Source: Escherichia phage F13. From it: a DNA stretch of 64,000 nucleotides. The notes beneath the pieces were generated by a model, which saw only the letters and a list, made by a program, of their open reading frames with translations, ran no database searches and had not been told where the DNA came from. The position numbers were made by a program, and so were the translations under genes. Shown piece after piece: positions 5,529-47,844 of this stretch (positions are counted from its first letter, which is position 1; every line of letters begins with the position of its first letter). The stretch lies in sequence record OP745617. One strand, written 5' to 3'.

Positions 5529-6061
5529 TGGGTAACGATGCAGGATGGGGCAAGCCGCGATACTCAAAACTTGCCCACTACTTTGACGACGGCGAGCAAA
5601 TCAGCTTGTGCGGTAAATTCAACAAAGGCAATACAGAGTTGACCGATGCTCAAGAAATGGAATCAAGTCTGACAATTGGTGATTGCTCTAAGTGCAGAAA
5701 GGCATTATATGAGTTATTGACTCTAAGGGGATTGAAAGCGGCAAAATCAAGGGATGAATGGGTCATCAACGTCTGTGAAGGGAATCCAGAATTGATGGAT
5801 GAATTGCTGAAAACAGATGCCGTTAATGCCATTTTCAAAAGGCATTATAAAACTTGTATGCGTTACAAGATGAATGATGATATTATTTTTATGGTATTAT
5901 CTTATTCAAGGAGCACAATGGACGTCAAAAAGCTTCGACAATATCGCCACAAGGTCATGTGTGAATTGCGCCGTTTAGGAGTTATTGTGGATAATAATGT
6001 CATTAAAACGGAGTTAAAGAAGCGTGATAAAAGGAATGGTGACTGGAAGGTCAGCGGATAA
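5525..6061 (+). CDS. hypothetical protein (178 aa) with possible Cys cluster
   Basis: ATGA overlap; SLCGKF...DCSKCRK spacing suggests metal binding. Confidence 0.5.
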   Translation: MMGNDAGWGKPRYSKLAHYFDDGEQISLCGKFNKGNTELTDAQEMESSLTIGDCSKCRKALYELLTLRGLKAAKSRDEWVINVCEGNPELMDELLKTDAVNAIFKRHYKTCMRYKMNDDIIFMVLSYSRSTMDVKKLRQYRHKVMCELRRLGVIVDNNVIKTELKKRDKRNGDWKVSG

Positions 6062-6319
6062 ATAAACACTGTTTACGTGTTTTGAAGAATGGAATGTGTG
6101 CAATGGGTCGCTTTATGCGGCCTTTTGTCGTTTGGGTCATGTTTTGCTATGGAATAATTATGAGGTTGTGTTTTATTTATTAATTGTGCGGAAATATTTA
6201 GAAATATATATAAACAGGATTGTTAATATTTTAATAGTTTATGGCTATTGGTCCGTGGTGTTTGTTAGATTCTATCTATGGATTGGATTTTCTTGGGTCG
6301 TGAAACGTGGTTTTGAACA

Positions 6320-6690
6320 CATTTGATACGCCTAAAATACGGTTAAAAATTAAGCGTATCATGGCTGCAGGCCGCGCCGTTCCTGGATTCCTCTTTTCCA
6401 AATTGGTACACCCTTACGTCATGATACGTCATGGTTTTTTATCCGTATCAGTGTACAACCCTTGCCGCGCCTGGCTTGTACATTAATCTTACGGATGATA
6501 CGGATAAAACTGAGCATCGTTATATATAGAATTCGAAAAATTAATTAACTCCATTTTAAAAACATTTATATTAATTTTTTTCATATCCTCATACTTATGT
6601 TAATTTATATATTTAACGTATCATCCGTAAGATATAAGTAAAAACAAAGACTTGCGGCAATACGGATGATACGTCATGATACGCTTCAAC
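6320..6690. repeat. iteron-like module: direct and inverted ATCCGTATC / GATACGGAT 9-mers flanking an AT-rich core (copy 1)
   Basis: Repeats read directly (tatccgtatca, ttacggatgatacggat, cgtatcatccgtaag, tacggatgatacgtcatgatacg); AT-rich core 6530-6615; homologous module at 22845-23135. Confidence 0.7.
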
Positions 6691-6874
6691 CAGCCAGCAG
6701 CGGCTAAGTCGTTGATTTGCATAACAAGCGGCAAAAGGGATGGATTTCTTTTATACGTATCAAACAGTACACCACGCACCACGGTCCGTTATCCATTCAG
6801 CAATATGATTTGTGTACGTTTATAGCCATAATGAACATCAATCTGCACTTGAATATAATGTCCATCCATTGTAT

Positions 6875-8095
6875 AATTCACACTATTAATTTGCACTATG
6901 GGATTTTGCACTATGAGTCAAGATTATGTAGCGATGCCTGAAGACTTTGAAGACCCGCGATTCGCAGAGCACAATCAGGCTTTATTCGATGAGTTCATTG
7001 ACCTTGTTATTCAGGGTCATGACATGCGCGCAGCTTTTGCACTAGTATTTGGAATGGAAGTTGCAACGGATAACTACACTGGCCAGCGAATCCTTTGCAC
7101 GCAACGCAATCCATACTACAAGATGCGCTTCAAAAAGCGTATGGAAGAGATGCCACTCAAGGATTTGTGGAGCGTAAAAGGTGCAATTCACAATTTGGTT
7201 AAGCTTGTTCGTGATCCAGAAGTCGCGGCGTCAGCCAAGCTTAATGCTATTCGTGAACTGAATATCATCTACGGCATCACGATGATTGATGAAAACGGCA
7301 ATAGTAAAATGGGCCGTTCCATGGACGATTTCTACAAGGATTTTGGAGAGGCGGCCAAAGAAGGTGAGCAATTCTCCCGCCACTAGCCAATTTGCACTAT
7401 AAAACGGCCCTAGAACACATTTTCTCCAATTCTAGGGCCATCGGTAATACGACGGGGAAGGTTACAAACATAAACGCGTTAGAAAGTGTATTATTATAAG
7501 TCATCTTTTAGTCACCTTACGTAACAATTTACGACCTTCAACCGTCCAATCGAACGACTCCACCAGCAGATTCGCACTATAACCTAAGACGATGCGTCCC
7601 TTCTCGTTATCGACCCGCCAACAAGTCTCGAATAGCATTCGATTTGCACTATTAACTATTGCCGCAACTCGCGTAGGATAAGCGCAATTTGAACTATGGT
7701 CGTAAAGGGATAAGGTGCGACCACTTCCGATGGACAACGTAGCGATGAGAATGAGCGTATTCATAAGCCACCAATTTGCACTATGAAAAGCGACCCCGAA
7801 GGGCCGCCATTCGATTAGATAATCTGGAAGGTATAGGATTTGTTGCCGAACTCAAAGTTCAAGCGCCCAGCTTCCTTAAGCTTCATGCGGAAGCGAATGT
7901 GCTTGCTATCCGGCAAGCCCAGCACGGCGAACGCTACGCGGACCGATTTGAACTCGCCTACACCCTCGACCATAACGCCGTTACGGGTGAGACGCTTTTG
8001 CGCCACTTCCTTATTATCCCAACTTTTTGCAATACCTTCGCTATTCGAACGGCGATGGGAAGGAGTTCCATTTTGCACTACGCAATTTGCACTAT
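6875..8095 (+). repeat. array of about 10 copies of the 12-bp motif (A/G)ATTTGCACTAT, all on the plus strand
   Basis: Copies at 6875, 6888, 6903, 7389, 7569, 7641, 7686, 7773, 8071, 8083 (some with one mismatch). Confidence 0.7.
6898..7386 (+). CDS. hypothetical protein (157-162 aa); speculative small terminase or DNA-binding protein
   Basis: ORF starting inside the first motif copies (alternative ATG at 6913); the terminase idea is only from size and the adjacent repeat array. Confidence 0.4.
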   Translation: MGFCTMSQDYVAMPEDFEDPRFAEHNQALFDEFIDLVIQGHDMRAAFALVFGMEVATDNYTGQRILCTQRNPYYKMRFKKRMEEMPLKDLWSVKGAIHNLVKLVRDPEVAASAKLNAIRELNIIYGITMIDENGNSKMGRSMDDFYKDFGEAAKEGEQFSRH

Positions 8096-9030: not shown

Positions 9031-9333
9031 ATGACTACTTTAATCTCTTCCATCCTTACTTACGACGAAGACCGTTTAACCGTTCGCTCTCTTATCGCCG
9101 CCGTTAACGCCGAACTAGAATCTAGCGCCATTAAGGTCCGCGCGGTTGCCTTCGTCGGTCTTTCCTTCGACGATATCAAGTACGCCGAACGTAGCGCCAT
9201 CCGCTTCGCGAAGACCGACGACGAAGCCGTTACCCTTATCGAGACGGTTACTCCGCGCGGCGAAACGTTAATTATCGTCGAGTATATCGACGTAGAAGGC
9301 GATAAGGCTTATAAATATTTTATCGCAAAATAA
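9031..9333 (+). CDS. small protein (100 aa), probable distant member of the same paralog family
   Basis: ATG with GGGAG RBS; 3' 200 bp of this gene is duplicated in the tandem repeat. Confidence 0.5.
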   Translation: MTTLISSILTYDEDRLTVRSLIAAVNAELESSAIKVRAVAFVGLSFDDIKYAERSAIRFAKTDDEAVTLIETVTPRGETLIIVEYIDVEGDKAYKYFIAK

Positions 9334-9744
9334 CGAAAAAGTGCTTTACTTCTTAGTACACTAAGACTATAATGTTTTATATCGAGAGGGGATGAGGTAG
9401 CGAATAGGTCGCTACCCTCCCGACTAACTAGGAGAATATTACGCGCGGTTGCCTTCGTCGGTCTTTCCTTCGACGATATCAAGTACGCCGAACGTAGCGC
9501 CATCCGCTTCGCGAAGACCGACGACGAAGCCGTTACCCTTATCGAGACGGTTACTCCGCGCGGCGAAACGTTAATTATCGTCGAGTATATCGACGTAGAA
9601 GGCGATAAGGCTTATAAATATTTTATCGCAAAATAACGAAAAAGTGCTTTACTTCTTAGTACACTAAGACTATAATGTTTTATATCGAGAGGGGATGAGG
9701 TAGCGAATAGGTCGCTACCCTCCCGACTAACTAGGAGAATATTA
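9139..9744. repeat. tandem direct duplication, 2 x 303 bp (9139-9441 and 9442-9744)
   Basis: Near-identical units read directly; each carries the gene 3' end, promoter (TTTACT-17-TATAAT at 9345-9373 and 9648-9676), leader hairpin and RBS. Confidence 0.85.
9442..9639 (+). pseudogene. promoter-less 3' fragment of gene 9031..9333 created by the tandem duplication
   Basis: Copy of the C-terminal coding part; at the junction the RBS is followed by ACG rather than ATG. Confidence 0.5.
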
Positions 9745-12138: not shown

Positions 12139-12438
12139 TTATCCATTGTCCACCGCCCCAATATCCATGAAATTAAAAACCAATTTCGCCATTTCATCTT
12201 GTGAAATGACATTATAGTGCTTAGGCAAATCGCTTTCTGATAATACCTTCTGGGCTTCTTCTTTTGTCTCAAAGAGAGGGATGCACCAGTTTACTGCTTC
12301 ACCAGATTCATTACTGTCTACTTGCTTTAAAAAGACCAAGCGGTTATCTTCAGGATCAATGCCGCAGATGACGTATTTTGGCAATGCTTTTGCTTTTTGA
12401 GTCTTATCAATATCTTCAAATTTCATAATACACCTCAC
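12139..12438 (-). CDS. hypothetical protein (99 aa)
   Basis: ORF. Confidence 0.4.
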   Translation of the reverse strand: MRCIMKFEDIDKTQKAKALPKYVICGIDPEDNRLVFLKQVDSNESGEAVNWCIPLFETKEEAQKVLSESDLPKHYNVISQDEMAKLVFNFMDIGAVDNG

Positions 12439-12507
12439 TTGTTAACGTATAATGAGTATAACTTAATAGCGCATAAAGTAAAGGCGCTTTTCAGCGCCTT
12501 GAGTGAA

Positions 12508-14817
12508 TTATTTTGCTGATTTCAGCGCGGCTATCTCTGCCTTGAGTTCACCTATCTGATCCATGAGTGCAAGAATAGCCTCGTGGTGCAATGCCGCTGC
12601 CACTCCGTAAGTGTCGACTGATTTGACATCCTTGACCACGGTCCCATCAGCCAGTTCCATATCACCTGAAACAGAAACGGCTTCTGGGAAATCAACCTCA
12701 ACATCTTGAGCCACGAATCCAAAACCTACTTTCGCGCCGTCAGTTTTCAATCGCCATGACACGCCATTAATCCTTTTCATCTTGGTCAATGGGTCTTGAA
12801 TCTTGACAATCTCATCCTTGATTCTGACGTCTGAAGAAGTACCCCAACCGCCAGCGCAAACAGCATTACCTGCTTGCAGGAATTGGAAATACTTGTTGGT
12901 GCCTACACCGCCAGCAGTAGTGGTCATTATGGTCACATCGCCATTACGCTCAGAATATACCCGACCATACGTTGCTGTGTTGGCACTGTTCTTAAAATCG
13001 ATGAACGATTGGTTGTTGGTGTTTCCAATGAACGTCGCTTGACCGCCGCGAGTTATCAACTGGCCTTTTGCATCAACGTTCCCAGAGCTGGTGATCAAGT
13101 TATTTGGCACAAGCAAGTTGCCGTTGTCGACAAAATCGAATGCCTGGCTGGCGGCAGTCGTCAAATTGGTAACGGTCAATCGCATGTAATAAGCGCCACC
13201 GATAACAGCGCGAATGCGCATGCGACCTTCAGCCTCAACAGCAGTCCCCACTCGATACTCCGACATGACGCTGCCGCCGTCAGCGGTCGTGCCTGGACCT
13301 GGCATTGCCGTATCGCCGTTTATAACAGACCATTGCGTATTCGCCGCTGTGAATCCACCGGATGCACGAATCACCCAAACGCCTGAAAAGTTGCGCGGCA
13401 ATACTTCATCTGTTGCAAGGTTGTTACGACCGTAAGCTGGGCTTGAGTTAGAAGCTCTTAGCGCAACGCTTCCCAAAGAGTTCGCACCAGAACTTAAAAG
13501 CGAAACACCTCTTACATATCGCGGAATGGTGAATCCTTCTCCATTGATGAATGCGCCGCCAGCACCTGCGACAACCGTTCCTGATGCTGGTTCACTTGCA
13601 GGGCCGGACCCGTGGAAGTTGATGTTGCCAGTGATGTTTGGCAGGAAGGATTCCATTATCATTCCGTCATTTGACGAGTTGCCGCCATCGCCACGGGCAA
13701 AAAGTGCACGAACACTTCCTGTCTGAACGCCGTTACGGTCTGGAACACGGAATGTTGTTGTTCCGTTGCCTAAAGAATACTTTCCGCGCTTCAGCGGGTC
13801 AGCCAACCAATCTGCATCAGCAATAGGCGTAAGCATTTGCGCATAAGCCCAAAGCTCAGGCCAGTCTGCACGGTTAAGCAATTGTCCGTCGGCAACAACT
13901 TCATACGACTGAATATAGGCGCGACTGTCGCGCAGGTGAAAGTCACCAACGCCATAGTTCATTACGCCGTTCATGCTTGGGCCAACGGTGCCAGTATTTA
14001 CTAAGTTCTCAACCCAACGCTTCGTCGCGGCATCATAATCATTGACGGGGTCGCCAGCCAGTGGTGTTGAGCCTTGTGGACGAATATTCAACCATGCTTG
14101 CGCATTGTCTGCTGATCCTGTGCCGCCCATGGAAGTTGGAACGATGCTCTGATCAGCAACAGGGCCAAATCCAAAGGCATCTTTCATTCCCTGAATAGTC
14201 GTTTGACCTGTGCCGCCGTTTGCAATTGGAATTGTGCTTTGTGAACTATAAATTTGCGCCCAAGGCGACCATGAAGATGTTTCAGCATTGTACCTTCTTT
14301 GGTACAAGTTATTTGAGTTGAATGTGGTGTATCTTTGAATGCAACTTTCCAAAGATATGGCAGTCTGCAGGACTTCCAATATCCCAGCTTCCAAGGCTAC
14401 TGGATAGTTGAGGGATGTCTGCGCAGCAGCATTTGAATATTGGTAATATTGCCCAAACCAAGTTCCAGTCAAAGAGTTCAGATTTATCCCCGACGGCAAA
14501 AGTCCAAAATTCCTGACAGTATTGGTCAAAGATGCGGCAGTTGTTCGAATGGAAAGCATGTCGCCTGCCGCCCATGCGCGCGCTGCAGTTCCTTCCTGTG
14601 CACGCTGCACAGTCAGGACGTTCCCAACCACGGCTGTTACAGTGATGATTTCAAATTGGAGGCCTGTTGCAGCGTCGACGATTGTCGCCACTACACGCTC
14701 GTTTGCACCCAAGGTCGGAAAGCCCGACCCTGAGCGGATTGTGATTGTGGTGTCTGAAGTCGTCGCTGGCTGAGCGAGCGCGACCTCAAAGTTGTTTTTG
14801 AATATTAGCCTTGGCAT
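12508..14817 (-). CDS. tail fiber or tailspike with C-terminal intramolecular chaperone (peptidase S74-like) domain
   Basis: 769 aa; C-terminus SSDVRIKDEI...GVSWRLK...GFVAQDV...LKAEIAALK is typical of the self-cleaving chaperone domain of fibers and endosialidases. Confidence 0.8.
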   Translation of the reverse strand: MPRLIFKNNFEVALAQPATTSDTTITIRSGSGFPTLGANERVVATIVDAATGLQFEIITVTAVVGNVLTVQRAQEGTAARAWAAGDMLSIRTTAASLTNTVRNFGLLPSGINLNSLTGTWFGQYYQYSNAAAQTSLNYPVALEAGILEVLQTAISLESCIQRYTTFNSNNLYQRRYNAETSSWSPWAQIYSSQSTIPIANGGTGQTTIQGMKDAFGFGPVADQSIVPTSMGGTGSADNAQAWLNIRPQGSTPLAGDPVNDYDAATKRWVENLVNTGTVGPSMNGVMNYGVGDFHLRDSRAYIQSYEVVADGQLLNRADWPELWAYAQMLTPIADADWLADPLKRGKYSLGNGTTTFRVPDRNGVQTGSVRALFARGDGGNSSNDGMIMESFLPNITGNINFHGSGPASEPASGTVVAGAGGAFINGEGFTIPRYVRGVSLLSSGANSLGSVALRASNSSPAYGRNNLATDEVLPRNFSGVWVIRASGGFTAANTQWSVINGDTAMPGPGTTADGGSVMSEYRVGTAVEAEGRMRIRAVIGGAYYMRLTVTNLTTAASQAFDFVDNGNLLVPNNLITSSGNVDAKGQLITRGGQATFIGNTNNQSFIDFKNSANTATYGRVYSERNGDVTIMTTTAGGVGTNKYFQFLQAGNAVCAGGWGTSSDVRIKDEIVKIQDPLTKMKRINGVSWRLKTDGAKVGFGFVAQDVEVDFPEAVSVSGDMELADGTVVKDVKSVDTYGVAAALHHEAILALMDQIGELKAEIAALKSAK

Positions 14818-14855
14818 TTTACGGTCCTCGTTTTGTCGACAACCGTATTATAACC

Positions 14856-15197
14856 TTAATTTCTTTTGAGAGGAATATGACGGTGGCTGCCATTATTTGG
14901 TTTAATAATGAGCATAAAAACGATTAGAAAGATGATGGCTGATATACTTAATTCAATCAGCGCGGCTTGAGATATAGATTGATCTTCGTGATACTGCTTT
15001 TGCATTTCTGCTTTCTTCTGAGCGCAAACTTCAGGTGATATGTAATCGCCTTTTGAGTTGCCATAATAAATTTCGCCGTTTTCAGAAATCAGTCTGCCGC
15101 AAATATCCGTTTCAGCCTTTGCACTTGACATCATAATAACGGTGCCGATAATAGCGGCGATAGTCCAGATTAACAGTTGTGATAAAGTGTTGTTCAT
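14856..15197 (-). CDS. membrane protein with N-terminal signal peptide and C-terminal TM anchor (113 aa)
   Basis: Start at internal ATG with AAAGAGG RBS; signal-like MNNTLSQLLIWTIAAIIGTVIMMSSAKA and C-terminal hydrophobic segment. Confidence 0.5.
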   Translation of the reverse strand: MNNTLSQLLIWTIAAIIGTVIMMSSAKAETDICGRLISENGEIYYGNSKGDYISPEVCAQKKAEMQKQYHEDQSISQAALIELSISAIIFLIVFMLIIKPNNGSHRHIPLKRN

Positions 15198-15393
15198 GAT
15201 AACCTCTTTAAATTCCCTTCCCATATCGGGAAGGGTGATAATTATTTTACGCGAAAGAATAGGCGCGTGCCACACAGCGAGTCCCAACGGCCTTCACCAT
15301 CCCATACCGACCCAACGCCAGCGGTGATGACACCAGCAGAATTGGCGGCATTGGCCCAGGCGAGTCGTTTCAGCTTCCAACTACACCAACGAT

Positions 15394-15645
15394 TCACAGT
15401 TCATCTCCAGATTGCAGAACAAGTCCCGCATAGAGGATTGCCAAGGCCAAAGGTGCACCACCACCAGCCTCTCTATTCTCTTTGATTTGAAGAGTATCCT
15501 TAAGGAATTGCAGCTGAACGTTGAATTCACTTTCAATTCCAAGCACTCTAGCCAATTCTTTTACAGAATCTGCATATGCCTTGTCTAGCACTTCTTTTGG
15601 TACTGTTAAGGTTAATTCATTTGCCATTTTCTTTCCACTCCACAA
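15394..15645 (-). CDS. hypothetical protein (83 aa)
   Basis: ORF. Confidence 0.4.
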   Translation of the reverse strand: MWSGKKMANELTLTVPKEVLDKAYADSVKELARVLGIESEFNVQLQFLKDTLQIKENREAGGGAPLALAILYAGLVLQSGDEL

Positions 15646-15838
15646 ATGTGTTGCCGCTTGTTTCTCTGTTTAGCAGGTATCTGCCGCGCATCCCATGAAG
15701 GCTGAACTCAACCGTCGATGGATTAGATTTTGAAAGCCATATAGGCTGCCCGTCGAATGGACCGCCTACGCATGTATATTTCGCTTTTGGCTCACTCCTT
15801 TTGGGCCGTTTTGCCCGCTCTTTGATTGATAGTCTCAT
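15617..15838 (-). CDS. hypothetical basic protein (73 aa)
   Basis: ORF. Confidence 0.35.
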   Translation of the reverse strand: MRLSIKERAKRPKRSEPKAKYTCVGGPFDGQPIWLSKSNPSTVEFSLHGMRGRYLLNRETSGNTFVEWKENGK

Positions 15839-16053
15839 CAGTCTTCACCTTGAGATTCCAGACAAGTAAGGACAAGCCAAGTCATCGGAAGAATCAAAAC
15901 CAGAGAAATGAGGGACCAGATAGACCAGCACAGGATGACAGACTTGAATGTGTGAACGTCGCCAAACGCAGCAGTAAAACAGAATCCCATTACAAATGCA
16001 ATAGCGGTGGAATGGTTGTCTATGGCTTTGATGGCACGGTCGATGAGTTTCAT
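15838..16053 (-). CDS. small two-TM membrane protein (71 aa), holin-like
   Basis: Two hydrophobic segments and charged C-terminus; assignment from topology only. Confidence 0.4.
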   Translation of the reverse strand: MKLIDRAIKAIDNHSTAIAFVMGFCFTAAFGDVHTFKSVILCWSIWSLISLVLILPMTWLVLTCLESQGED

Positions 16054-16125
16054 ATTACCTCCGGTTTTGAGTTAATATGATTATAACGCAGAGTCTCAGA
16101 AAGGCAAACTTTTTGTGAATTTTAA

Positions 16126-16156
16126 TCAAAAAAAATGGCCAGAAAAAAATCTGGCC
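16126..16156 (-). terminator. stem-loop GGCCAGA-loop-TCTGGCC with T-tract on minus strand
   Basis: Inverted repeat read directly, at the junction of divergent modules; role uncertain. Confidence 0.3.
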
Positions 16157-16232
16157 GAAAGATCACCCTTTATCCACTACTAAGCTGGAATCATAATTTT
16201 ACTTGATATAGCTTGTACAAGCAAACTATAAT

Positions 16233-39602: not shown

Positions 39603-42341
39603 ATGCAAAAGTTTGACACAAACCTGTTGCAAAACCTTAAGTGGATGCAGAACAATGCGCCAAACATTACATCTTTGGTGCAAAAGAAAAGTGACTGGTA
39701 TGAAAGATACCAAGATCAGTTTTGGACTGACTGGTACAATAACATTTTTAACATTGACACTTGTGATGCAATGGGCATTTATATTTGGTGCGACATTCTT
39801 TGCATACCAAGAGACTTTGTGGACTTAAGCAATTATGAGCACAACTGGGCGTTTGGACCGACGCGCGACAACTTTGAAGGTGCGGACAACATCGGCGGCA
39901 ACTTCTTTGGTGCTGGCGGGAAGGTTGTAAAGAATATCGAAGAAGCGCGCATACTTCTTAAGCTTCGTTATCTGACGCTTACAAGTGATGGCCGCATCGA
40001 AAGTATCAATCGCATGCTTAAGTGGATTTTCAACCGTGGAGAGGCTTGGGATTACTCTTCATCACGCTACGCATATGTGACCGACAATACTCAAGGCGCA
40101 GTGTCTTCGTCTGAATCAACCAATGGCTCATTCCTTCTGTACGACTGGCAAGGGTCAACTGAGATTCAGCACGATTATAAGCAGATACTTTTAAGCCATG
40201 GCAACAACGCCGGACTGACCATCAGCGGAGTATCAGGCACCGTGTCACGGATGGCGCATCCAGATTGGTACTCATGGGGGAATGGCTCCGGCACAGGTCT
40301 TGTCGGCGGCGACACCAGACAGTATGGCGGCCCTGATTACTATGGACAGTTGTGTGGTGATTACCCAGGCGAGGCCATAGAGAATTTTGCCAACGCAGTA
40401 AGGGTAGTCAAGACTGCTTCAAGCGGTGAGCCTGTGTATTCTTTGGCAGATAATCCAAGCGCCCAATCCATTGCGCTTCCTTCGCAGGCTGGCGTTAACG
40501 TTTGTTATAGCTTCTACATAAAGGTGCTTTCTGAAAATGTCGCTTCTGTTTCGGTTACAGAGAATAGTGATGCATCTAGTAATGGAAAGTTGTTTGACCC
40601 AGTCACTGGGCAGTTCAACTTGGACCCGTATTTGAGCTATTTCATCACAGGCAAATTCGATGGAGTAAGAAGGGAATCAAGCCGTGGTGGCATCAAAGCA
40701 ATCGGCGGCGATTGGTATCGAATCTGGATTGTAGAGCAGACGGCAACCGCTGCGTCTGGAGTAAGTACCAGCTTTTCAATAGAGTTGAAGGCGACTGCCG
40801 CTGGATCAACTCAAACTCGTGAATTGCCTGAAGGGTCTGATGCACTTCTTTTTGGATACTCGATTTGCGTCTGCGACCCTGTTCAGAATCCAAATGGACC
40901 TGAGCCTTATTTTTATGGAACGCAAAACCCTCCTTCTGACGGAACAGCAATACTGTCTGTAACGGCGGGAACGCTCAACAACATCTCCTGTGCAAACGGA
41001 CCGCTGACGACAAGAAACGGTGTGGTTGGCGAGTCATTCATGCAACCTGGCTCATCACTTGCATACTCTGGCTCAATCGGCGGCTACCCGTACCCAGGGA
41101 ACGCCACATTGATTGCAGAGACTGACGGCATCAGACGCTCATGGAACGTTAGCAGGCTTGATGGAGTACCGCCGCCGCCGACCGCTGACTATTACATGGA
41201 ATACGTCATCGGACCTTATTTCGCCAACAACCTGTCAGACAACTTTAAGACGCTAGTTGGCGACAGGGATGAAGGATTCTTGCCAGCAAATGCCGGAATA
41301 CGCTGGCAGCGTTACCAAGAAGTCGCAGACTTATCTGATATTGATTTGACTGTCAGCAACATAACAGACACGCGAGTAGGATTTGAAACGGAAGGTGTTG
41401 CTTGGATTAACACTGACGGTATCATCAGAGTTGGCGGCATTAACGAGTGGCCGCTGAACAACTTCAACGGTGTGATACGCCAGCTTGAATCTTTGAAAGG
41501 TGTAAACCAGGTCATCGACGGCGCGCTTGTCAACGACTATTCAATCTCAAAAGCATCAAGAGATGACTTTGGTCGTGAAATCCCACGTGCCGCAATCACT
41601 AACTACTGGAGATACACACAGCCCAATGACGGCACATCTTTTGGCAATATCATTGAGGATGGCGCAAACACGGTCACAGCGACGCCAATCAGCGGTGTAC
41701 CCAACCAGTTCCCATCATTCAAGCTTTCCGCTACAATAGGGACTGTGCCAGCGTCCGGTTATGCACGCGCTGTACTTGCTACTAAATACACTGGCACCCT
41801 GACTGGTCCTTTATCATTCATTGCGGTAGTCAAAAACAACACGGTTAACGGTCAAAAACTTTTTGTAACTGTACCGGATGGGATGGGTGGCTATATCCCT
41901 AAATTCTACAACATAGGCGCAGGTGATTTGCAACGTATCGAAATTGACCTTGCCGCTGAGATTGTTGAAGGCGCTACCTGGGATGGATCAACAGGCGGCA
42001 TCAGCATCGGTTTGATATCAGGGAAAGACTTGCCGACCGAAGTTGGTACGACTCTTGAACTTGATATTTTAAGCTTGATGCTTGTGTCTGGTAATACGAT
42101 GAATGCGCTTGCAATTTCAACAAGCGAAGATTTCGCAAAGAAGACTGCGACTTCTATATACATCAAAAACCCAGGATCACTTGCCACTGGAGTTCAATTG
42201 ATTGCTTCTAATGGTGATGTTGTAGCAACAGTAAACTTTCCGAGAAGTGCTGCTGGTGGTTATGTTTCAAGCATGAACATAACTGACTTAACTGGTGATT
42301 GGGCATCAACCCTTTTATCAAAAATTAAATACATCGTGTAG
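39603..42341 (+). CDS. large tail fiber / baseplate-associated structural protein (912 aa)
   Basis: Size, Gly/Ser/Thr-rich composition, position before the fiber gene. Confidence 0.5.
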   Translation: MQKFDTNLLQNLKWMQNNAPNITSLVQKKSDWYERYQDQFWTDWYNNIFNIDTCDAMGIYIWCDILCIPRDFVDLSNYEHNWAFGPTRDNFEGADNIGGNFFGAGGKVVKNIEEARILLKLRYLTLTSDGRIESINRMLKWIFNRGEAWDYSSSRYAYVTDNTQGAVSSSESTNGSFLLYDWQGSTEIQHDYKQILLSHGNNAGLTISGVSGTVSRMAHPDWYSWGNGSGTGLVGGDTRQYGGPDYYGQLCGDYPGEAIENFANAVRVVKTASSGEPVYSLADNPSAQSIALPSQAGVNVCYSFYIKVLSENVASVSVTENSDASSNGKLFDPVTGQFNLDPYLSYFITGKFDGVRRESSRGGIKAIGGDWYRIWIVEQTATAASGVSTSFSIELKATAAGSTQTRELPEGSDALLFGYSICVCDPVQNPNGPEPYFYGTQNPPSDGTAILSVTAGTLNNISCANGPLTTRNGVVGESFMQPGSSLAYSGSIGGYPYPGNATLIAETDGIRRSWNVSRLDGVPPPPTADYYMEYVIGPYFANNLSDNFKTLVGDRDEGFLPANAGIRWQRYQEVADLSDIDLTVSNITDTRVGFETEGVAWINTDGIIRVGGINEWPLNNFNGVIRQLESLKGVNQVIDGALVNDYSISKASRDDFGREIPRAAITNYWRYTQPNDGTSFGNIIEDGANTVTATPISGVPNQFPSFKLSATIGTVPASGYARAVLATKYTGTLTGPLSFIAVVKNNTVNGQKLFVTVPDGMGGYIPKFYNIGAGDLQRIEIDLAAEIVEGATWDGSTGGISIGLISGKDLPTEVGTTLELDILSLMLVSGNTMNALAISTSEDFAKKTATSIYIKNPGSLATGVQLIASNGDVVATVNFPRSAAGGYVSSMNITDLTGDWASTLLSKIKYIV

Positions 42342-42351
42342 AGGAACGGCA

Positions 42352-44136
42352 ATGCCAACACTTATTAACAGACCTTTCGCGCAAAGCGGTGATGTATCCG
42401 TGGTGCCGGATGCAAGTCCAAGCGGTTATGTGAACTTCCAGCGCGGCTACACCCCTGACTATGCACTTGCGCTGGAAGCCGGAAACGTCGCCGCGAAAGC
42501 AGTTGAACGTGAGTCGATGAACTGGTTGCTGAATCTGATCACCGACAACCTTATGTTCATCCAGGACCACGGCGCTCAACAGTATTTCTCGTCTGACTTG
42601 AAGCCAGATGGATACCCGAAAAATGCCATCGTTGTCAGCAACTCTGGCACCCCTTCAGCGCCTGAATGGCGCATTTTCCAGAGTGTGGTAGACGGCAACA
42701 CCAGCGCAGTCCCAGCTAACGGCGAAACGGAATCTTGGCAGGAATTGACGCTGCCTAGCGAAGCGAGAAAATATATTCCTATGCCTGCTGGCGGCGATGC
42801 GCAAAACCCGTATTTTGTTCGCGGACTGATTTCAAACTTTGTGGACTTTGATAATATCACGACTTCCACAACTATTGTCATTCAATCTGATGCCGTTGCC
42901 GCTCTCTGCTCTAACATCCCGAACGCGGTTGGTGCGACGAAGGTTGCAGGTCGTCTCCAGGTTTGCGCTTGGCAGGTTGATGCGCAGACTTTCGCCCTGC
43001 AACAATACACGTCAATGAACGGATATGTTTTCACCCGCTCTTATACTTCTGGTGCTTGGAGTGCTTGGATTCAAAATGCAACTGTTCAAGACGTGCAAAT
43101 CGGCACGCCGAATCTTGCATCAGGTAAAGGCGCACAAGATATAATCCTTACCGTTCCGGCAGGTTATGCATGGCCGCCGTCAGCAGGTAGTCGCCTGACA
43201 ATTGTCAATGATGTAACGACTACCGGACCTGTTACCGTGACCATTGGTGCAAACAAAGTTGCAGTCCTTGGATTCGACGGCGGCGAGCTGCCAGCAGGGT
43301 CCATCGTCGGTCTTCTTCCTTTTACTATTATTTATGACGGCACCGTTTGGCGTCTTCTTCAAGCATTCGGCGCGGCGCAAATCGGTGTCGATGCTAGTGA
43401 GCCGCAACAGTTTGTTACAAAGCGCCAACTCGATGCTTTGGCTGCGAAATTGATAACTATGGGTGATGTATTCGAAGTCGGTGAGACTCGATTCTTGACT
43501 AATGGCACTAACCCAAATACTAAACTGGGCGCTTATGGACAGGTTTGGACCAGATTGCCTGACAACATGGTCATCAGGACATCTGGCACAGCAAGAAACG
43601 GCCTTGCCACTGGCGGCGCGGACTCTGTTACTCTTACCGCCGCCATGCTTCCTCTGCACAATCACAGCGTGAACATAACTACGCGACAGAGCGGTCCATG
43701 GTCCAATACCACTGGAGGCGCAGGCAACCATAACCACACAGGCGATACCAGTCAAAACGGCGCTCACGTGCACGGAATGGATGCTGCTGGTAATCATCAT
43801 CACGACAGTGGCTGGGGTGAGGCTTATGCAGACCAGGCTAGATACGGGGTGTATGATGGCACGCACAATAACCTTGGAAGTGCAAGGTCTGATTATGACA
43901 ACTACAAATACAACACCTCGACTAACGGTAGCCACGTCCACAATATTCAATCTTCTGGGTCACACACCCATGGGTTGAATATAAATTTCGCTGGCAATCA
44001 CAGCCATAGCTATACCCTTCCCGCTCACACTCACGATGTGGTCGGTAACACTGGCAATGCAGGGCAGTCCGTCCCAACGGCTGTTTCAACTCTGCCGCGA
44101 TATGTCGTCTTGAACGGCTGGTACAGAAGCGCATAA
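42352..44136 (+). CDS. tail fiber protein with His-rich HxH C-terminal tip
   Basis: 594 aa from ATG 42352 (GAGGAA RBS); C-terminal HNHS..NHNHTGD..HVHG..NHHHD..HVHN..HTHG..NHSHS..HTHD repeats. Confidence 0.6.
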   Translation: MPTLINRPFAQSGDVSVVPDASPSGYVNFQRGYTPDYALALEAGNVAAKAVERESMNWLLNLITDNLMFIQDHGAQQYFSSDLKPDGYPKNAIVVSNSGTPSAPEWRIFQSVVDGNTSAVPANGETESWQELTLPSEARKYIPMPAGGDAQNPYFVRGLISNFVDFDNITTSTTIVIQSDAVAALCSNIPNAVGATKVAGRLQVCAWQVDAQTFALQQYTSMNGYVFTRSYTSGAWSAWIQNATVQDVQIGTPNLASGKGAQDIILTVPAGYAWPPSAGSRLTIVNDVTTTGPVTVTIGANKVAVLGFDGGELPAGSIVGLLPFTIIYDGTVWRLLQAFGAAQIGVDASEPQQFVTKRQLDALAAKLITMGDVFEVGETRFLTNGTNPNTKLGAYGQVWTRLPDNMVIRTSGTARNGLATGGADSVTLTAAMLPLHNHSVNITTRQSGPWSNTTGGAGNHNHTGDTSQNGAHVHGMDAAGNHHHDSGWGEAYADQARYGVYDGTHNNLGSARSDYDNYKYNTSTNGSHVHNIQSSGSHTHGLNINFAGNHSHSYTLPAHTHDVVGNTGNAGQSVPTAVSTLPRYVVLNGWYRSA

Positions 44137-44144
44137 GGTGATTT

Positions 44145-44789
44145 ATGATTAATGCAAACGTAATATCTAAAGGGACCGGATGCAGCATGGATGTTGCTGA
44201 AAAATGGGTCGACCCCTTCAAGCAGGCTTGTGAGCACTACGGAATCAAAAGCAAGAATGCCATCGCGGCGTTGCTTGCAAACGTAGGAGTAGAAACAGGC
44301 AGTATGAAGACTTTTGTGGAGAACTTGAATTACTCCGCTCAAGGTCTTGCGAATACATGGCCTAGCCGTTACAGCGCCAGCGGTCGTTTCGGTGGCGCAC
44401 CAAACTCCTTGGCATTGTCTATTGCCCGTAAACCAATGGAAATCGCCAATAATACATATGCAAACCGAATGGGCAATGGTTCGGTAGCATCTGGCGACGG
44501 TTGGAAGTACCGTGGCCGTGGTGCCATTCAGCTGACTGGAAAGGCTAACTATGCAGAGTATTCAAAGCAATCAGGGTATGATGCATTGAATAACCCTGAC
44601 ATTTTGACTGAGCCGAAACACATCGCTGACAGCGCGGCATGGTTCTTCAAGAACAGCGGTTGCATCCCACTTGCTGATGCTGGCGCATTTGATTCGACTG
44701 TGAAGCGGATTAACGGGGCCGCGCCGAATACGGCTAACCATGGAGATTTGCGACGGAAGCGTTACAAGGATGCACTAGCAGTTATGTAA
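44145..44789 (+). CDS. endolysin, glycoside hydrolase family 19-like
   Basis: 214 aa; motifs YANRMGNG...GWKYRGRGAIQLTGKANY typical of GH19 lysozymes. Confidence 0.7.
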   Translation: MINANVISKGTGCSMDVAEKWVDPFKQACEHYGIKSKNAIAALLANVGVETGSMKTFVENLNYSAQGLANTWPSRYSASGRFGGAPNSLALSIARKPMEIANNTYANRMGNGSVASGDGWKYRGRGAIQLTGKANYAEYSKQSGYDALNNPDILTEPKHIADSAAWFFKNSGCIPLADAGAFDSTVKRINGAAPNTANHGDLRRKRYKDALAVM

Positions 44790-47328: not shown

Positions 47329-47844
47329 TTATTTTTCCTTTGATGCATTGAATTGATCGATTTTTATTTTAGCCTGATTATAAGTATCAATCAAGCTATT
47401 AACTTTCTCTTTTAATCGATTTGTTTCTGCGGCGAACTGAACAAGAAATCTGACATCCTCTTCTGATAGTCCACAGTTTCCTTCTGGGATAGAGAGGCGT
47501 CCAGTGGTCGCAGAGTCGGGCACACTCCTGAGTAACTCACGGGAGCAGCTGAGTTGCTCGCGCAACTTGACATTCCCAGACTTGTAACGAGCAATAGTGT
47601 CATCAGCAACCAGTTGCGCTTCCTGGCGACCCTTCTCATATGCCGATGCCGATTCAACCTGTAAAGTTGCAATTTGCTCTTCGAGTGCATTTATCTTGTC
47701 CTTACGCTCATTAAGCGATGTCAGATATTGATTATCCTTGGCCAGTGATGCGTTGGTTTGCTGCAGGTCTTCAACGTATGATCCAGCGGCAAACGCGCCA
47801 ACAAGGGCCAGAATCTTCAGGAGCGGTACAATTCTTTCTATCAT
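47329..47844 (-). CDS. i-spanin (Rz-like) candidate: N-terminal TM plus coiled coil
   Basis: 171 aa; TM IVPLLKILALVGAFAAGSYV then heptad-rich sequence; embedded out-of-frame ORF with lipoprotein-like signal. Confidence 0.4.
   Translation of the reverse strand: MIERIVPLLKILALVGAFAAGSYVEDLQQTNASLAKDNQYLTSLNERKDKINALEEQIATLQVESASAYEKGRQEAQLVADDTIARYKSGNVKLREQLSCSRELLRSVPDSATTGRLSIPEGNCGLSEEDVRFLVQFAAETNRLKEKVNSLIDTYNQAKIKIDQFNASKEK
47412..47603 (-). CDS. embedded o-spanin (Rz1-like) candidate
   Basis: Out-of-frame ORF inside 47329..47844; MTLLLVTSLGMSSCAS resembles a lipoprotein signal but the lipobox is non-canonical. Confidence 0.25.
   Translation of the reverse strand: MTLLLVTSLGMSSCASNSAAPVSYSGVCPTLRPLDASLSQKETVDYQKRMSDFLFSSPQKQID

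Follow-up and report, generated by a model that had tools for sequence, protein, structure and literature searches.

A gene resembling a receptor-binding tail fiber lies on the minus strand, far from the main tail genes, in a 64,000-nucleotide stretch of DNA from Escherichia phage F13 (OP745617; here, the window), and it raises the questions of what the protein is, whether it provides the phage with a second receptor specificity, and which unit of DNA is exchanged if the specificity is swappable. The window is 100% identical to OP352608.1, the record of Escherichia phage vB_EcoM_SP13 (Wifcevirus), for which the host is listed merely as “Escherichia sp.” The open reading frame (12508..14817, minus strand; SP13_015) starts with ATG and encodes a 769-amino-acid (aa) precursor of 81.3 kDa. 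It matches PHROG 6921, “tail fiber protein” (E value of 9.5e-206), and has homologs numbering in the hundreds, ruling out a chance ORF; the PHROG matches are to fiber families in every case. Orthologs are present in 28 Wifcevirus records, and the other annotated ones name the product a tail fiber.

The 769-aa ORF is the known variable, host-range-determining tail fiber of Wifcevirus, described as a “T-shaped” fiber for the BASEL phages Bas98-101 (Humolli et al. 2025, PMC11990801). The discovery value of the locus is small, as this kind of fiber, with its two RBDs and its exchange between phages by horizontal transfer, is already in the literature (PMC11990801), and the sequence itself was already in GenBank. 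What we add is that a knob domain reassorts as a third module and that the syntenic site of Pantoea phage Kyle is taken by an EPS depolymerase. In our assessment, the gene very probably encodes the second, variable tail fiber of a Wifcevirus myovirus, of the T-shaped dual-RBD type.

The fiber is organized into conserved and variable blocks, all on the minus strand. The N-terminal anchor (aa 1-100; 14518..14817) forms one cluster at 90% identity among 87 alleles, and aa 1-105 are 97% identical to the Bas99 fiber. By tblastn, aa 1-100 are homologous to fiber N termini in 146 phage records, including Ralstonia phage GP4, and the N terminus is also homologous to that of the tail fiber in PDB 8jov (E value of 2.6e-7), which we take to be the GP4 structure, given the tblastn match to the GP4 tail fiber gene. 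The first variable module is a pyocin-type knob (aa 101-210; 14188..14517), for which sequence profile and fold both match the R-type pyocin fiber knob (PDB 6CL5, 6CL6, and 6CT8/6CU2); the pyocin fiber bears knobs in tandem, followed by a lectin-like foot, whereas the SP13 fiber has a single knob near its N terminus and is otherwise unrelated. A conserved scaffold follows (aa 211-370; 13708..14187), comprising the shaft and the collar-like core of RBD1, with a median identity of 94% across alleles and 91% identity to gp177 of Tequintavirus KookSpook; this block is likely a recombination anchor. Within RBD1, the hypervariable segment (aa 371-480; 13378..13707) falls into 52 clusters at 90% identity, with a median identity of 33% among the 87 alleles, and only phage kaset matches the SP13 version closely (~93 to 100%). 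A short linker (aa 481-510; 13288..13377), conserved over aa ~481-500, connects RBD1 to RBD2, and around it F477, G479, and V480-G488 (VWVIRASGG) are invariant and entropy is low. The distal tip, RBD2 (aa 511-661; 12835..13287), precedes the S74 intramolecular chaperone (IMC; aa 662-769; 12508..12834).

The first-pass annotation of this DNA had recognized a minus-strand fiber with a C-terminal chaperone of the self-cleaving type, and the domain searches agree. Pfam PF13884 (Peptidase_S74) matches aa 662-714 (E value of 5.1e-10; 39.9 bits versus a cutoff of 22), and the C-terminal domain has the IMC fold. The sequence SDVRIK at aa 662-667 fits the S-D-x-R-x-K motif of the catalytic Ser-Lys dyad, and S662 and K667 are invariant in all 87 alleles despite varying surroundings. 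From this motif, we predict autocleavage directly N-terminal to Ser662, freeing a fragment of 11.6 kDa. Searches with fiber fragments against Pfam at E values up to 10 returned no domain besides S74 except a Collar match below threshold (E value of 0.0066; 16.8 bits versus a cutoff of 24), NCBIfam gave no matches for the fiber and its neighbors, and neither Pfam nor structure comparison revealed a depolymerase or lectin domain in the fiber. Comparison of T4 gp12 with the 87-allele fiber profile (hhalign) yielded no signal (probability of 0.3%); the scaffold is 90 to 100% identical to those of Bas99 and Mansfield, for which a Gp12-like RBD1 (SSF88874) has been assigned. In an AF2 monomer model of the whole fiber, confidence is confined to the knob, aa 501-570, and the IMC; pLDDT is <50 over most of aa 216-497, and the trimeric RBD1 and RBD2 regions of the model are unusable.

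Orthologs of the fiber within Wifcevirus are 55 to 63% identical to one another, compared with 95.5 to 98% for nearly all copies of the fiber of the main tail locus. The proposal that the gene encodes a swappable second receptor-binding protein is borne out: it is the variable one of the genus. The published description of the T-shaped fiber assigns it an N-terminal anchor, a Gp12-like RBD1, a T5-like RBD2, and an IMC (PMC11990801). Its representative in Bas99 (Gp114 of ManiWeber/Bas99) is an ortholog that occupies the same genomic position, likewise ends in an IMC, and has its conserved and variable blocks distributed in the same way, the anchor and scaffold being as similar as noted above; in contrast, the knob is 33 to 60%, the RBD1 insert 20 to 23%, and RBD2 with most of the IMC 13 to 30% identical to SP13. 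The T shape itself was described for the Bas99-type fiber (PMC11990801), whereas the SP13 fiber is known here from a monomer model. Among the 87 alleles, we counted 75 module combinations, with RBD2 and the IMC linked at 96%; kaset has RBD1 in common with SP13 but not RBD2. The units exchanged are thus sub-genic, namely, the knob, RBD1, and RBD2 plus the IMC. For the SP13 tip, the closest annotated relative is RBP2 of Kuravirus phage vB_EcoP_PAS59 (with related Gordonclarkvirinae fibers), at 62% identity for RBD2 and 70% for the IMC, although RBP2 comes from a podovirus, is 707 aa long, differs in its N terminus, and attaches via a proximal fiber or RBP1.

Published mass spectrometry (MS) of phage preparations bears on whether the protein is part of the particle. 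With 34 peptides and 80% coverage, the ortholog vB_Eco4M-7_27 scored highest of all proteins, and the ortholog of ECML-117 was likewise detected. Some proteins without a structural role, a helicase among them, also turned up at low score in the vB_Eco4M-7 sample, and detection alone is therefore no proof of a virion component. Absence from virions combined with a non-structural central region would have counted against a fiber; instead, orthologs are found in phage preparations and the center is homologous to structural fibers, such as LtfA of DT57C and DT571/2. As for the receptor, Bas98-101 depend totally on the O16 O-antigen, and the authors note that their own data do not tell which RBD matters (PMC11990801); in LtfA, exchange of the C-terminal part switched specificity between O22-like and O87 (PMC4728585).

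We propose a mechanism in which three chains fold together, aided by the S74 chaperone at their C termini, which would then cut itself off through the Ser662/Lys667 dyad to leave a mature fiber of ~70 kDa. The invariant N-terminal domain may plug the fiber into the baseplate, and the exposed knob, RBD1 insert, and RBD2 tip would recognize variable glycans of the cell surface (O-antigen most likely) and thereby set host range, with an invariant function left to the fiber of the main locus. The stretches conserved among alleles (aa 1-100, 211-370, and 481-500) could act as homologous-recombination anchors through which the three variable modules exchange independently, with partners that include siphoviruses (Tequintavirus LtfA) and also podoviruses (Kuravirus). 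A fiber of this kind would determine the range of Escherichia coli O-types open to attack by a Wifcevirus phage, and the module boundaries (aa 101-210, 371-480, and 511-769), along with the recombination anchors, are useful for host-range engineering and for prediction from sequence.

The gene was described as detached, about 25 kb from the main fiber genes, and the distance is accurate: 24.8 kb separate it from the gene for a 912-aa baseplate-wedge protein at 39603 and 27.5 kb from the conserved 594-aa tail fiber of the main locus (42352..44136, plus strand), the first fiber set of the virion. The latter is 95.5 to 98% identical in nearly all Wifcevirus records (90.2% in one), and over its N-terminal 370 aa it is homologous to the Pbunavirus gp47 tail fiber (9b45). 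The variable fiber does lie on the opposite strand, away from the main tail genes; a recent relocation, however, does not fit, as the position is fixed in the genus, with the same gene order in 11 of 11 Wifcevirus loci and the fiber as the last large gene of a leftward unit divergent from terL. In Pantoea phage Kyle (Kylevirus), the EPS depolymerase at the syntenic place is unrelated to the fiber, and the record of Pbunavirus PB1, which extends 1.2 kb to the left of terL, shows no more than three small ORFs there. One tentative reading, which we advance as a pair and consider doubtful, is that, in this myovirus lineage, the leftward block beside terL serves as a conserved site for accessory proteins that interact with receptors and that the pyocin-type knob is a third independently exchanged specificity module; if true, the latter would make the fiber a three-site adhesin instead of a dual-RBD one. 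As the Kyle protein KYLE_21 and the 912-aa wedge protein, in its C-terminal extension, both match phrog_11600, a common domain was considered; it was rejected, the matches falling in different parts of the profile and the two showing no pairwise similarity.

The strong homology to LtfA invites another interpretation, that the protein is mainly the stem of a branched fiber on which a further receptor-binding protein docks, in the way that LtfB docks on LtfA in DT57C; branched fibers are common among relatives. LtfA of DT57C and DT571/2 (PDB 8HQZ chain d; Golomidova 2016; Ayala 2023) aligns with fiber aa 234-767 (E value of 1.3e-130), shares the C-terminal S74 chaperone, and is 83 to 87% identical over the scaffold (87% for DT57C), the homologous part being unresolved in 8HQZ. 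However, the homology starts at about LtfA residue 539-541, past the proposed LtfB-binding region of LtfA 223-471 (PMC4728585), such that the SP13 fiber has no LtfB docking region, and it also has no partner gene, there being no ltfB-like gene or ORF adjoining the fiber. The sole adjacent protein in the MS data is a 95-aa acidic protein, and LtfA differs further in having its own N-terminal attachment via a coiled coil and the LtfC ring. A branched stem is thus very unlikely, and we return to the variable dual-RBD fiber as the preferred reading.

More improbable still is the idea that the fiber and adjacent membrane proteins form one mobile cassette in which a membrane protein is a receptor-matched partner, for example, an exclusion protein like Llp of T5. 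The idea has some appeal: in T5 an RBP gene sits beside that of a receptor-blocking lipoprotein (PMC4728585), and here, too, the genes are tightly adjacent and apparently co-transcribed. Directly upstream of the fiber, as the first-pass annotation had noticed, a 113-aa membrane protein is encoded (14856..15197, minus strand); by hydropathy, aa 4-26 form a hydrophobic segment at its N terminus, a signal or an anchor, ahead of AKA|E, and a transmembrane (TM) segment lies near its C terminus (aa ~78-100), and the vB_Eco4M-7 record remarks on its ortholog, “transmembrane domain and signal peptide found with Phobius.” The two-TM small protein also exists (71 aa; 15838..16053, minus strand; two hydrophobic segments by hydropathy), but it lies outside the 12508-15197 interval within which it had been placed. 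Between them are genes for 73 aa (15617-15838), 77 aa (15394-15627), and 51 aa (15242-15397), all in the leftward unit on the minus strand; read directly from the sequence, the stops and starts of these four small upstream genes (15242..16053) overlap in one leftward unit with the fiber, and the genes are 86 to 100% identical across Wifcevirus. Yet, the 113-aa and 71-aa proteins are 96 to 100% identical in 11 of 11 Wifcevirus loci whichever fiber allele adjoins them, and the claim that fiber and membrane protein are swapped as a cassette is therefore unsupported, exchange occurring inside the fiber gene. The 113-aa protein, moreover, is 96.5 to 100% identical in 28 Wifcevirus records and found in none elsewhere, RBD modules occur without it in several morphotypes, and its gene was seen neither to travel with RBD modules in other phage groups nor to co-vary with RBD type. 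It has no lipobox, and its ortholog was not detected by MS in vB_Eco4M-7 preparations. Exhaustive HMMER searching against 1.84 billion representatives found only its own cluster and therefore gives no functional lead; the 113-aa protein is a genus-specific ORFan outside the exchanged unit, and both membrane proteins are to be counted as Wifcevirus core genes rather than parts of a host-range module.

Least credible of all is an enzymatic tailspike or endosialidase degrading a polysialic acid capsule or other polysaccharide, for which the GenBank product name of SP13_015 (“endo-N-acetylneuraminidase”), the first description of the S74 chaperone in endosialidases (PF13884, “Chaperone of endosialidase”), and a weak fold match to 3gw6 speak, but 3gw6 is an isolated IMC, the likeness to endosialidase (K1F/K1E-type, GH58) tailspikes is confined to that C-terminal self-cleaving chaperone, the fiber has neither their catalytic sialidase beta-propeller nor their stalk domains and no Pfam sialidase, beta-propeller, or beta-helix match, the homologs of its central 530 aa are the non-enzymatic LtfA and fibers of many phages, and PHROG matches and ortholog annotations agree on a tail fiber. 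The label is a mis-annotation, a transfer error.

The remaining features of the locus are minor. PHROGs and Pfam gave nothing informative for the small neighbors, an Rfam scan of 9 to 19 kb returned no matches, and a tRNA scan found none. Co-variation of the 95-aa downstream protein with the fiber C-terminal allele was considered and dismissed, as none was seen across the compared loci. Before the 71-aa gene, divergent from terL, is a sigma-70-like promoter candidate (TTGCCT-16-TATAAT; 16080..16107, minus strand), a consensus match only. Directly past the fiber stop codon is a terminator-like hairpin (12481..12500, minus strand; −13.6 kcal/mol, z −3.3), and the WFC record has a terminator annotated at the same place.

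The gene for the 769-aa variable tail fibre (minus strand, 12508..14817) is a mosaic of alternating conserved and hypervariable blocks. By megablast, the segment at 12300-15400 matched Escherichia phage vB_EcoM_SP13 (OP352608.1, Wifcevirus, 72.4 kb; here SP13, whose positions plus 6854 equal window positions) over its full length at 100% identity, 27 further Wifcevirus records in part (34-65% of the query, 84-93% identity), and the 112-kb phage KookSpook, where neighbouring genes look T5-like, in a single short stretch. Public assemblies supplied 86 distinct full-length homologues (mostly on ~68-kb contigs; 58-97% identity), which we aligned with the SP13 fibre; blocks were defined by the column entropy of this 87-allele alignment. 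The near-invariant N-terminal domain (aa 1-100; one cluster at 90% identity) is homologous to the tail fibre N-terminus in PDB 8jov (E 2.6e-7) and to the N-terminal part of fibres in 146 records from phages of several morphotypes, among them Ralstonia phage GP4 and Bcep22-like, Klebsiella, Yersinia, and Pseudomonas phages; it is best read as the virion-attachment domain. A conserved scaffold (aa 211-370; median 94% identity) precedes a hypervariable receptor-binding segment, RBD1 (aa 371-480; 52 clusters, median 33%), a short conserved block (aa 481-500) with an invariant VWVIRASGG, and a hypervariable tip, RBD2 (aa 511-661; 25 clusters, median 19%), the nearest annotated relative of which is Kuravirus PAS59 RBP2 (62%). 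At the C terminus lies the S74 intramolecular chaperone (IMC), where Pfam PF13884 Peptidase_S74 covers aa 662-714 (E 5.1e-10; 39.9 bits, cutoff 22); a predicted cut just N-terminal to Ser662 would yield a mature chain of 69.7 kDa and an 11.6-kDa fragment.

Both the sequence of this fibre and its type were already known, the type from a published description. Humolli et al. 2025 (PMC11990801) deal with precisely this family of proteins and report two fibres in Wifcevirus phages: a conserved one with a T4 gp37-like tip, encoded in the tail locus, and a "T-shaped" one (Gp114 of ManiWeber/Bas99) composed of an N-terminal anchor, Gp12-like RBD1, T5-like RBD2, and C-terminal IMC. The same study reports total dependence of phages Bas98-101 on the O16 O-antigen. 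The SP13 and Bas99 scaffolds share 90-100% identity, which puts orthology beyond doubt. Fold assignments to the RBD alleles of SP13 still come from the literature: a Pfam Collar match to the SP13 fibre was sub-threshold, an hhalign comparison with T4 gp12 was negative, and the monomer model is unreliable over most of aa 216-497 and over aa 572-661.

The scaffold is 83-91% identical to the T5-like lateral fibres KookSpook gp177, DT57C LtfA, and DT571/2 LtfA, and swapping the C-terminal part of the homologous LtfA changes its O-antigen specificity (O22-like versus O87; Golomidova et al. 2016, PMC4728585). That the fibre is the stem of a branched fibre, as LtfA is, is unlikely: homology to LtfA begins past the region where LtfB is proposed to dock, and an ltfB-like gene is absent. 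The LtfA entry 8HQZ resolves only the N terminus, not the part homologous to the SP13 fibre.

Evidence for the variable fibre as an exchangeable receptor-binding protein comes from its modules. Window-by-window identity between the kaset and SP13 alleles is 93-100% over aa 361-480, so that RBD1 is common to both, but merely 33-57% over the pyocin-type knob (aa 101-210) and 10-40% over RBD2; FEC19, Ro157lw, and EC150 share only the final ~50 residues with SP13. When each module of the 87 alleles was clustered at 85% identity, knob, RBD1, and RBD2 occurred in 75 distinct combinations, and allele pairs alike in one module were alike in another in just 21-42% of cases. In 96%, RBD2 remains linked to the IMC, a pattern that co-evolution of the chaperone with the tip that it folds would produce. 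Relatives of the C-terminal two thirds (aa ~234-769) occur in 362 phage records, including Tequintavirus, Gordonclarkvirinae, phiKT/PGT2-type podoviruses, and Dhillonvirus. The swapped unit is therefore part of the fibre gene, bordered by conserved blocks, rather than the gene as a whole or a cassette of several genes. The knob is a third variable block with semi-independent reassortment, an addition to the conserved N terminus and two RBDs described in the sections of Humolli et al. 2025 (PMC11990801) cited here.

The first-pass annotation proposed a multi-gene cassette in which the fibre travels with its membrane-protein neighbours. The leftward unit does place these genes together: a sigma-70-like promoter match (16107-16080, minus strand) is followed on the same strand by genes of 71, 73, 77, and 51 aa whose stops and starts overlap, the 113-aa gene (14856..15197) directly upstream of the fibre, the fibre itself, and a hairpin (12500-12481; -13.6 kcal/mol, z -3.3) where the WFC record has a terminator. 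This order is identical in all 11 other Wifcevirus loci examined, so the "detached" position of the fibre is a fixed feature of the genus. The proposal fails because the neighbours are invariant across Wifcevirus: the 71-aa protein (15838..16053; two hydrophobic segments) and the 113-aa protein (an N-terminal hydrophobic segment and a C-terminal transmembrane segment) are 96-100% identical in those 11 genomes, whatever fibre allele adjoins. All 28 phage records with the 113-aa protein are Wifcevirus, and when 1.84 billion cluster representatives were searched exhaustively with HMMER, its own cluster alone was retrieved. It is a conserved genus-specific ORFan and does not travel with the RBDs as a partner; on the cassette and on the role of the membrane proteins, the first-pass annotation was wrong.

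The remaining reading, that the fibre is an endosialidase as its GenBank label has it (SP13_015, "endo-N-acetylneuraminidase"), fails, since the chaperone domain is the sole shared part and no catalytic domain is detectable; the label is a mis-annotation derived from the S74 domain name "chaperone of endosialidase," and other annotated records name the orthologues tail fibre or hypothetical protein.

On the plus strand, 24.8-27.5 kb from the fibre, is the main tail locus. Its 594-aa fibre (42352-44136), a homologue of Pbunavirus tail fibre gp47, shows 95.5-98% identity across nearly all Wifcevirus records (one at 90.2%), whereas the SP13 fibre is 55-63% identical overall to its Wifcevirus orthologues, a difference that marks the 769-aa fibre as the host-range determinant. 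Its orthologue vB_Eco4M-7_27 (82.7 kDa) had the top mass spectrometry (MS) score in phage preparations (34 peptides, 80% coverage), and the ECML-117 orthologue was also detected (18 peptides) (Necel et al. 2020, PMC7048862); we verified the gene mapping and masses. The first-pass annotation would have been refuted by a protein missing from virions with a centre related to non-structural proteins; instead, the protein was detected in phage preparations and its centre is homologous to structural fibres. The observation itself is confirmed, as the elements listed in the first-pass annotation (769-aa ORF, S74 domain, distant main tail locus, membrane proteins) are all present, and its interpretation as a second, exchangeable receptor-binding protein was right in substance.

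Synteny extends to Pantoea phage Kyle (Kylevirus, MN038177.1), in which TerL and portal are 82% and 72% identical (amino acid) to those of SP13 and the left flank is collinear. The left end, TerL, and portal are homologous, but the intervening block is not: left of terL, syntenic with the Wifcevirus fibre, Kyle encodes a 611-aa EPS depolymerase (5701-7536, minus strand; phrog_4250, E 1.6e-149; PDB 6tgf, E 4.4e-81) with no similarity to the SP13 fibre. In the Pbunavirus PB1 record, just three small ORFs lie left of terL. This is a hint, from only two genera, that the block may serve as a slot in which accessory receptor-interacting proteins are placed.

Upstream of the main-locus fibre, the 912-aa gene (39603-42341, plus strand) has an N terminus homologous to the Pbunavirus triplex/wedge protein gp45/46 (500 aa), the match being limited to the first ~185 aa; the extra ~700 aa, missing from Pbunavirus, might, speculatively, dock the additional fibre. 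Lysis genes are dispersed: the endolysin (44145-44789, plus strand) follows the tail fibre, the rightward minus-strand block (~47329-47844) is where spanins would be expected, judging by position relative to the Bas99 annotation, and no holin is annotated at positions 1-40000 of the Bas99 record. The conserved 71-aa two-TM and 113-aa proteins are candidates for membrane-acting functions.

A perfect 303-bp tandem duplication at 9139-9744 (2.0 copies, 100% identity), in frame (101 codons) in a small plus-strand gene and also evident as duplicated ORFs, is either genuine or an assembly artefact. Just downstream of the fibre, past the terminator-like hairpin, a 95-aa acidic protein (12139-12426, minus strand) is more variable (64-91%) than the remaining neighbours and showed no co-variation with the fibre C-terminal allele in the Wifcevirus locus comparison; its 63% identical counterpart vB_Eco4M-7_26 (10.5 kDa) was MS-detected in phage preparations (62% coverage). 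A second terminator-like hairpin (16156-16137, minus strand) lies upstream of the promoter-like site. In the intergenic stretch that separates the 71-aa gene from terL (16054-16232), SP13 lacks a 76-aa gene present in vB_Eco4M-7 (_32), Mansfield, and Bas100, the product of which (7.8 kDa) was detected by MS with a high score in Eco4M-7 preparations.
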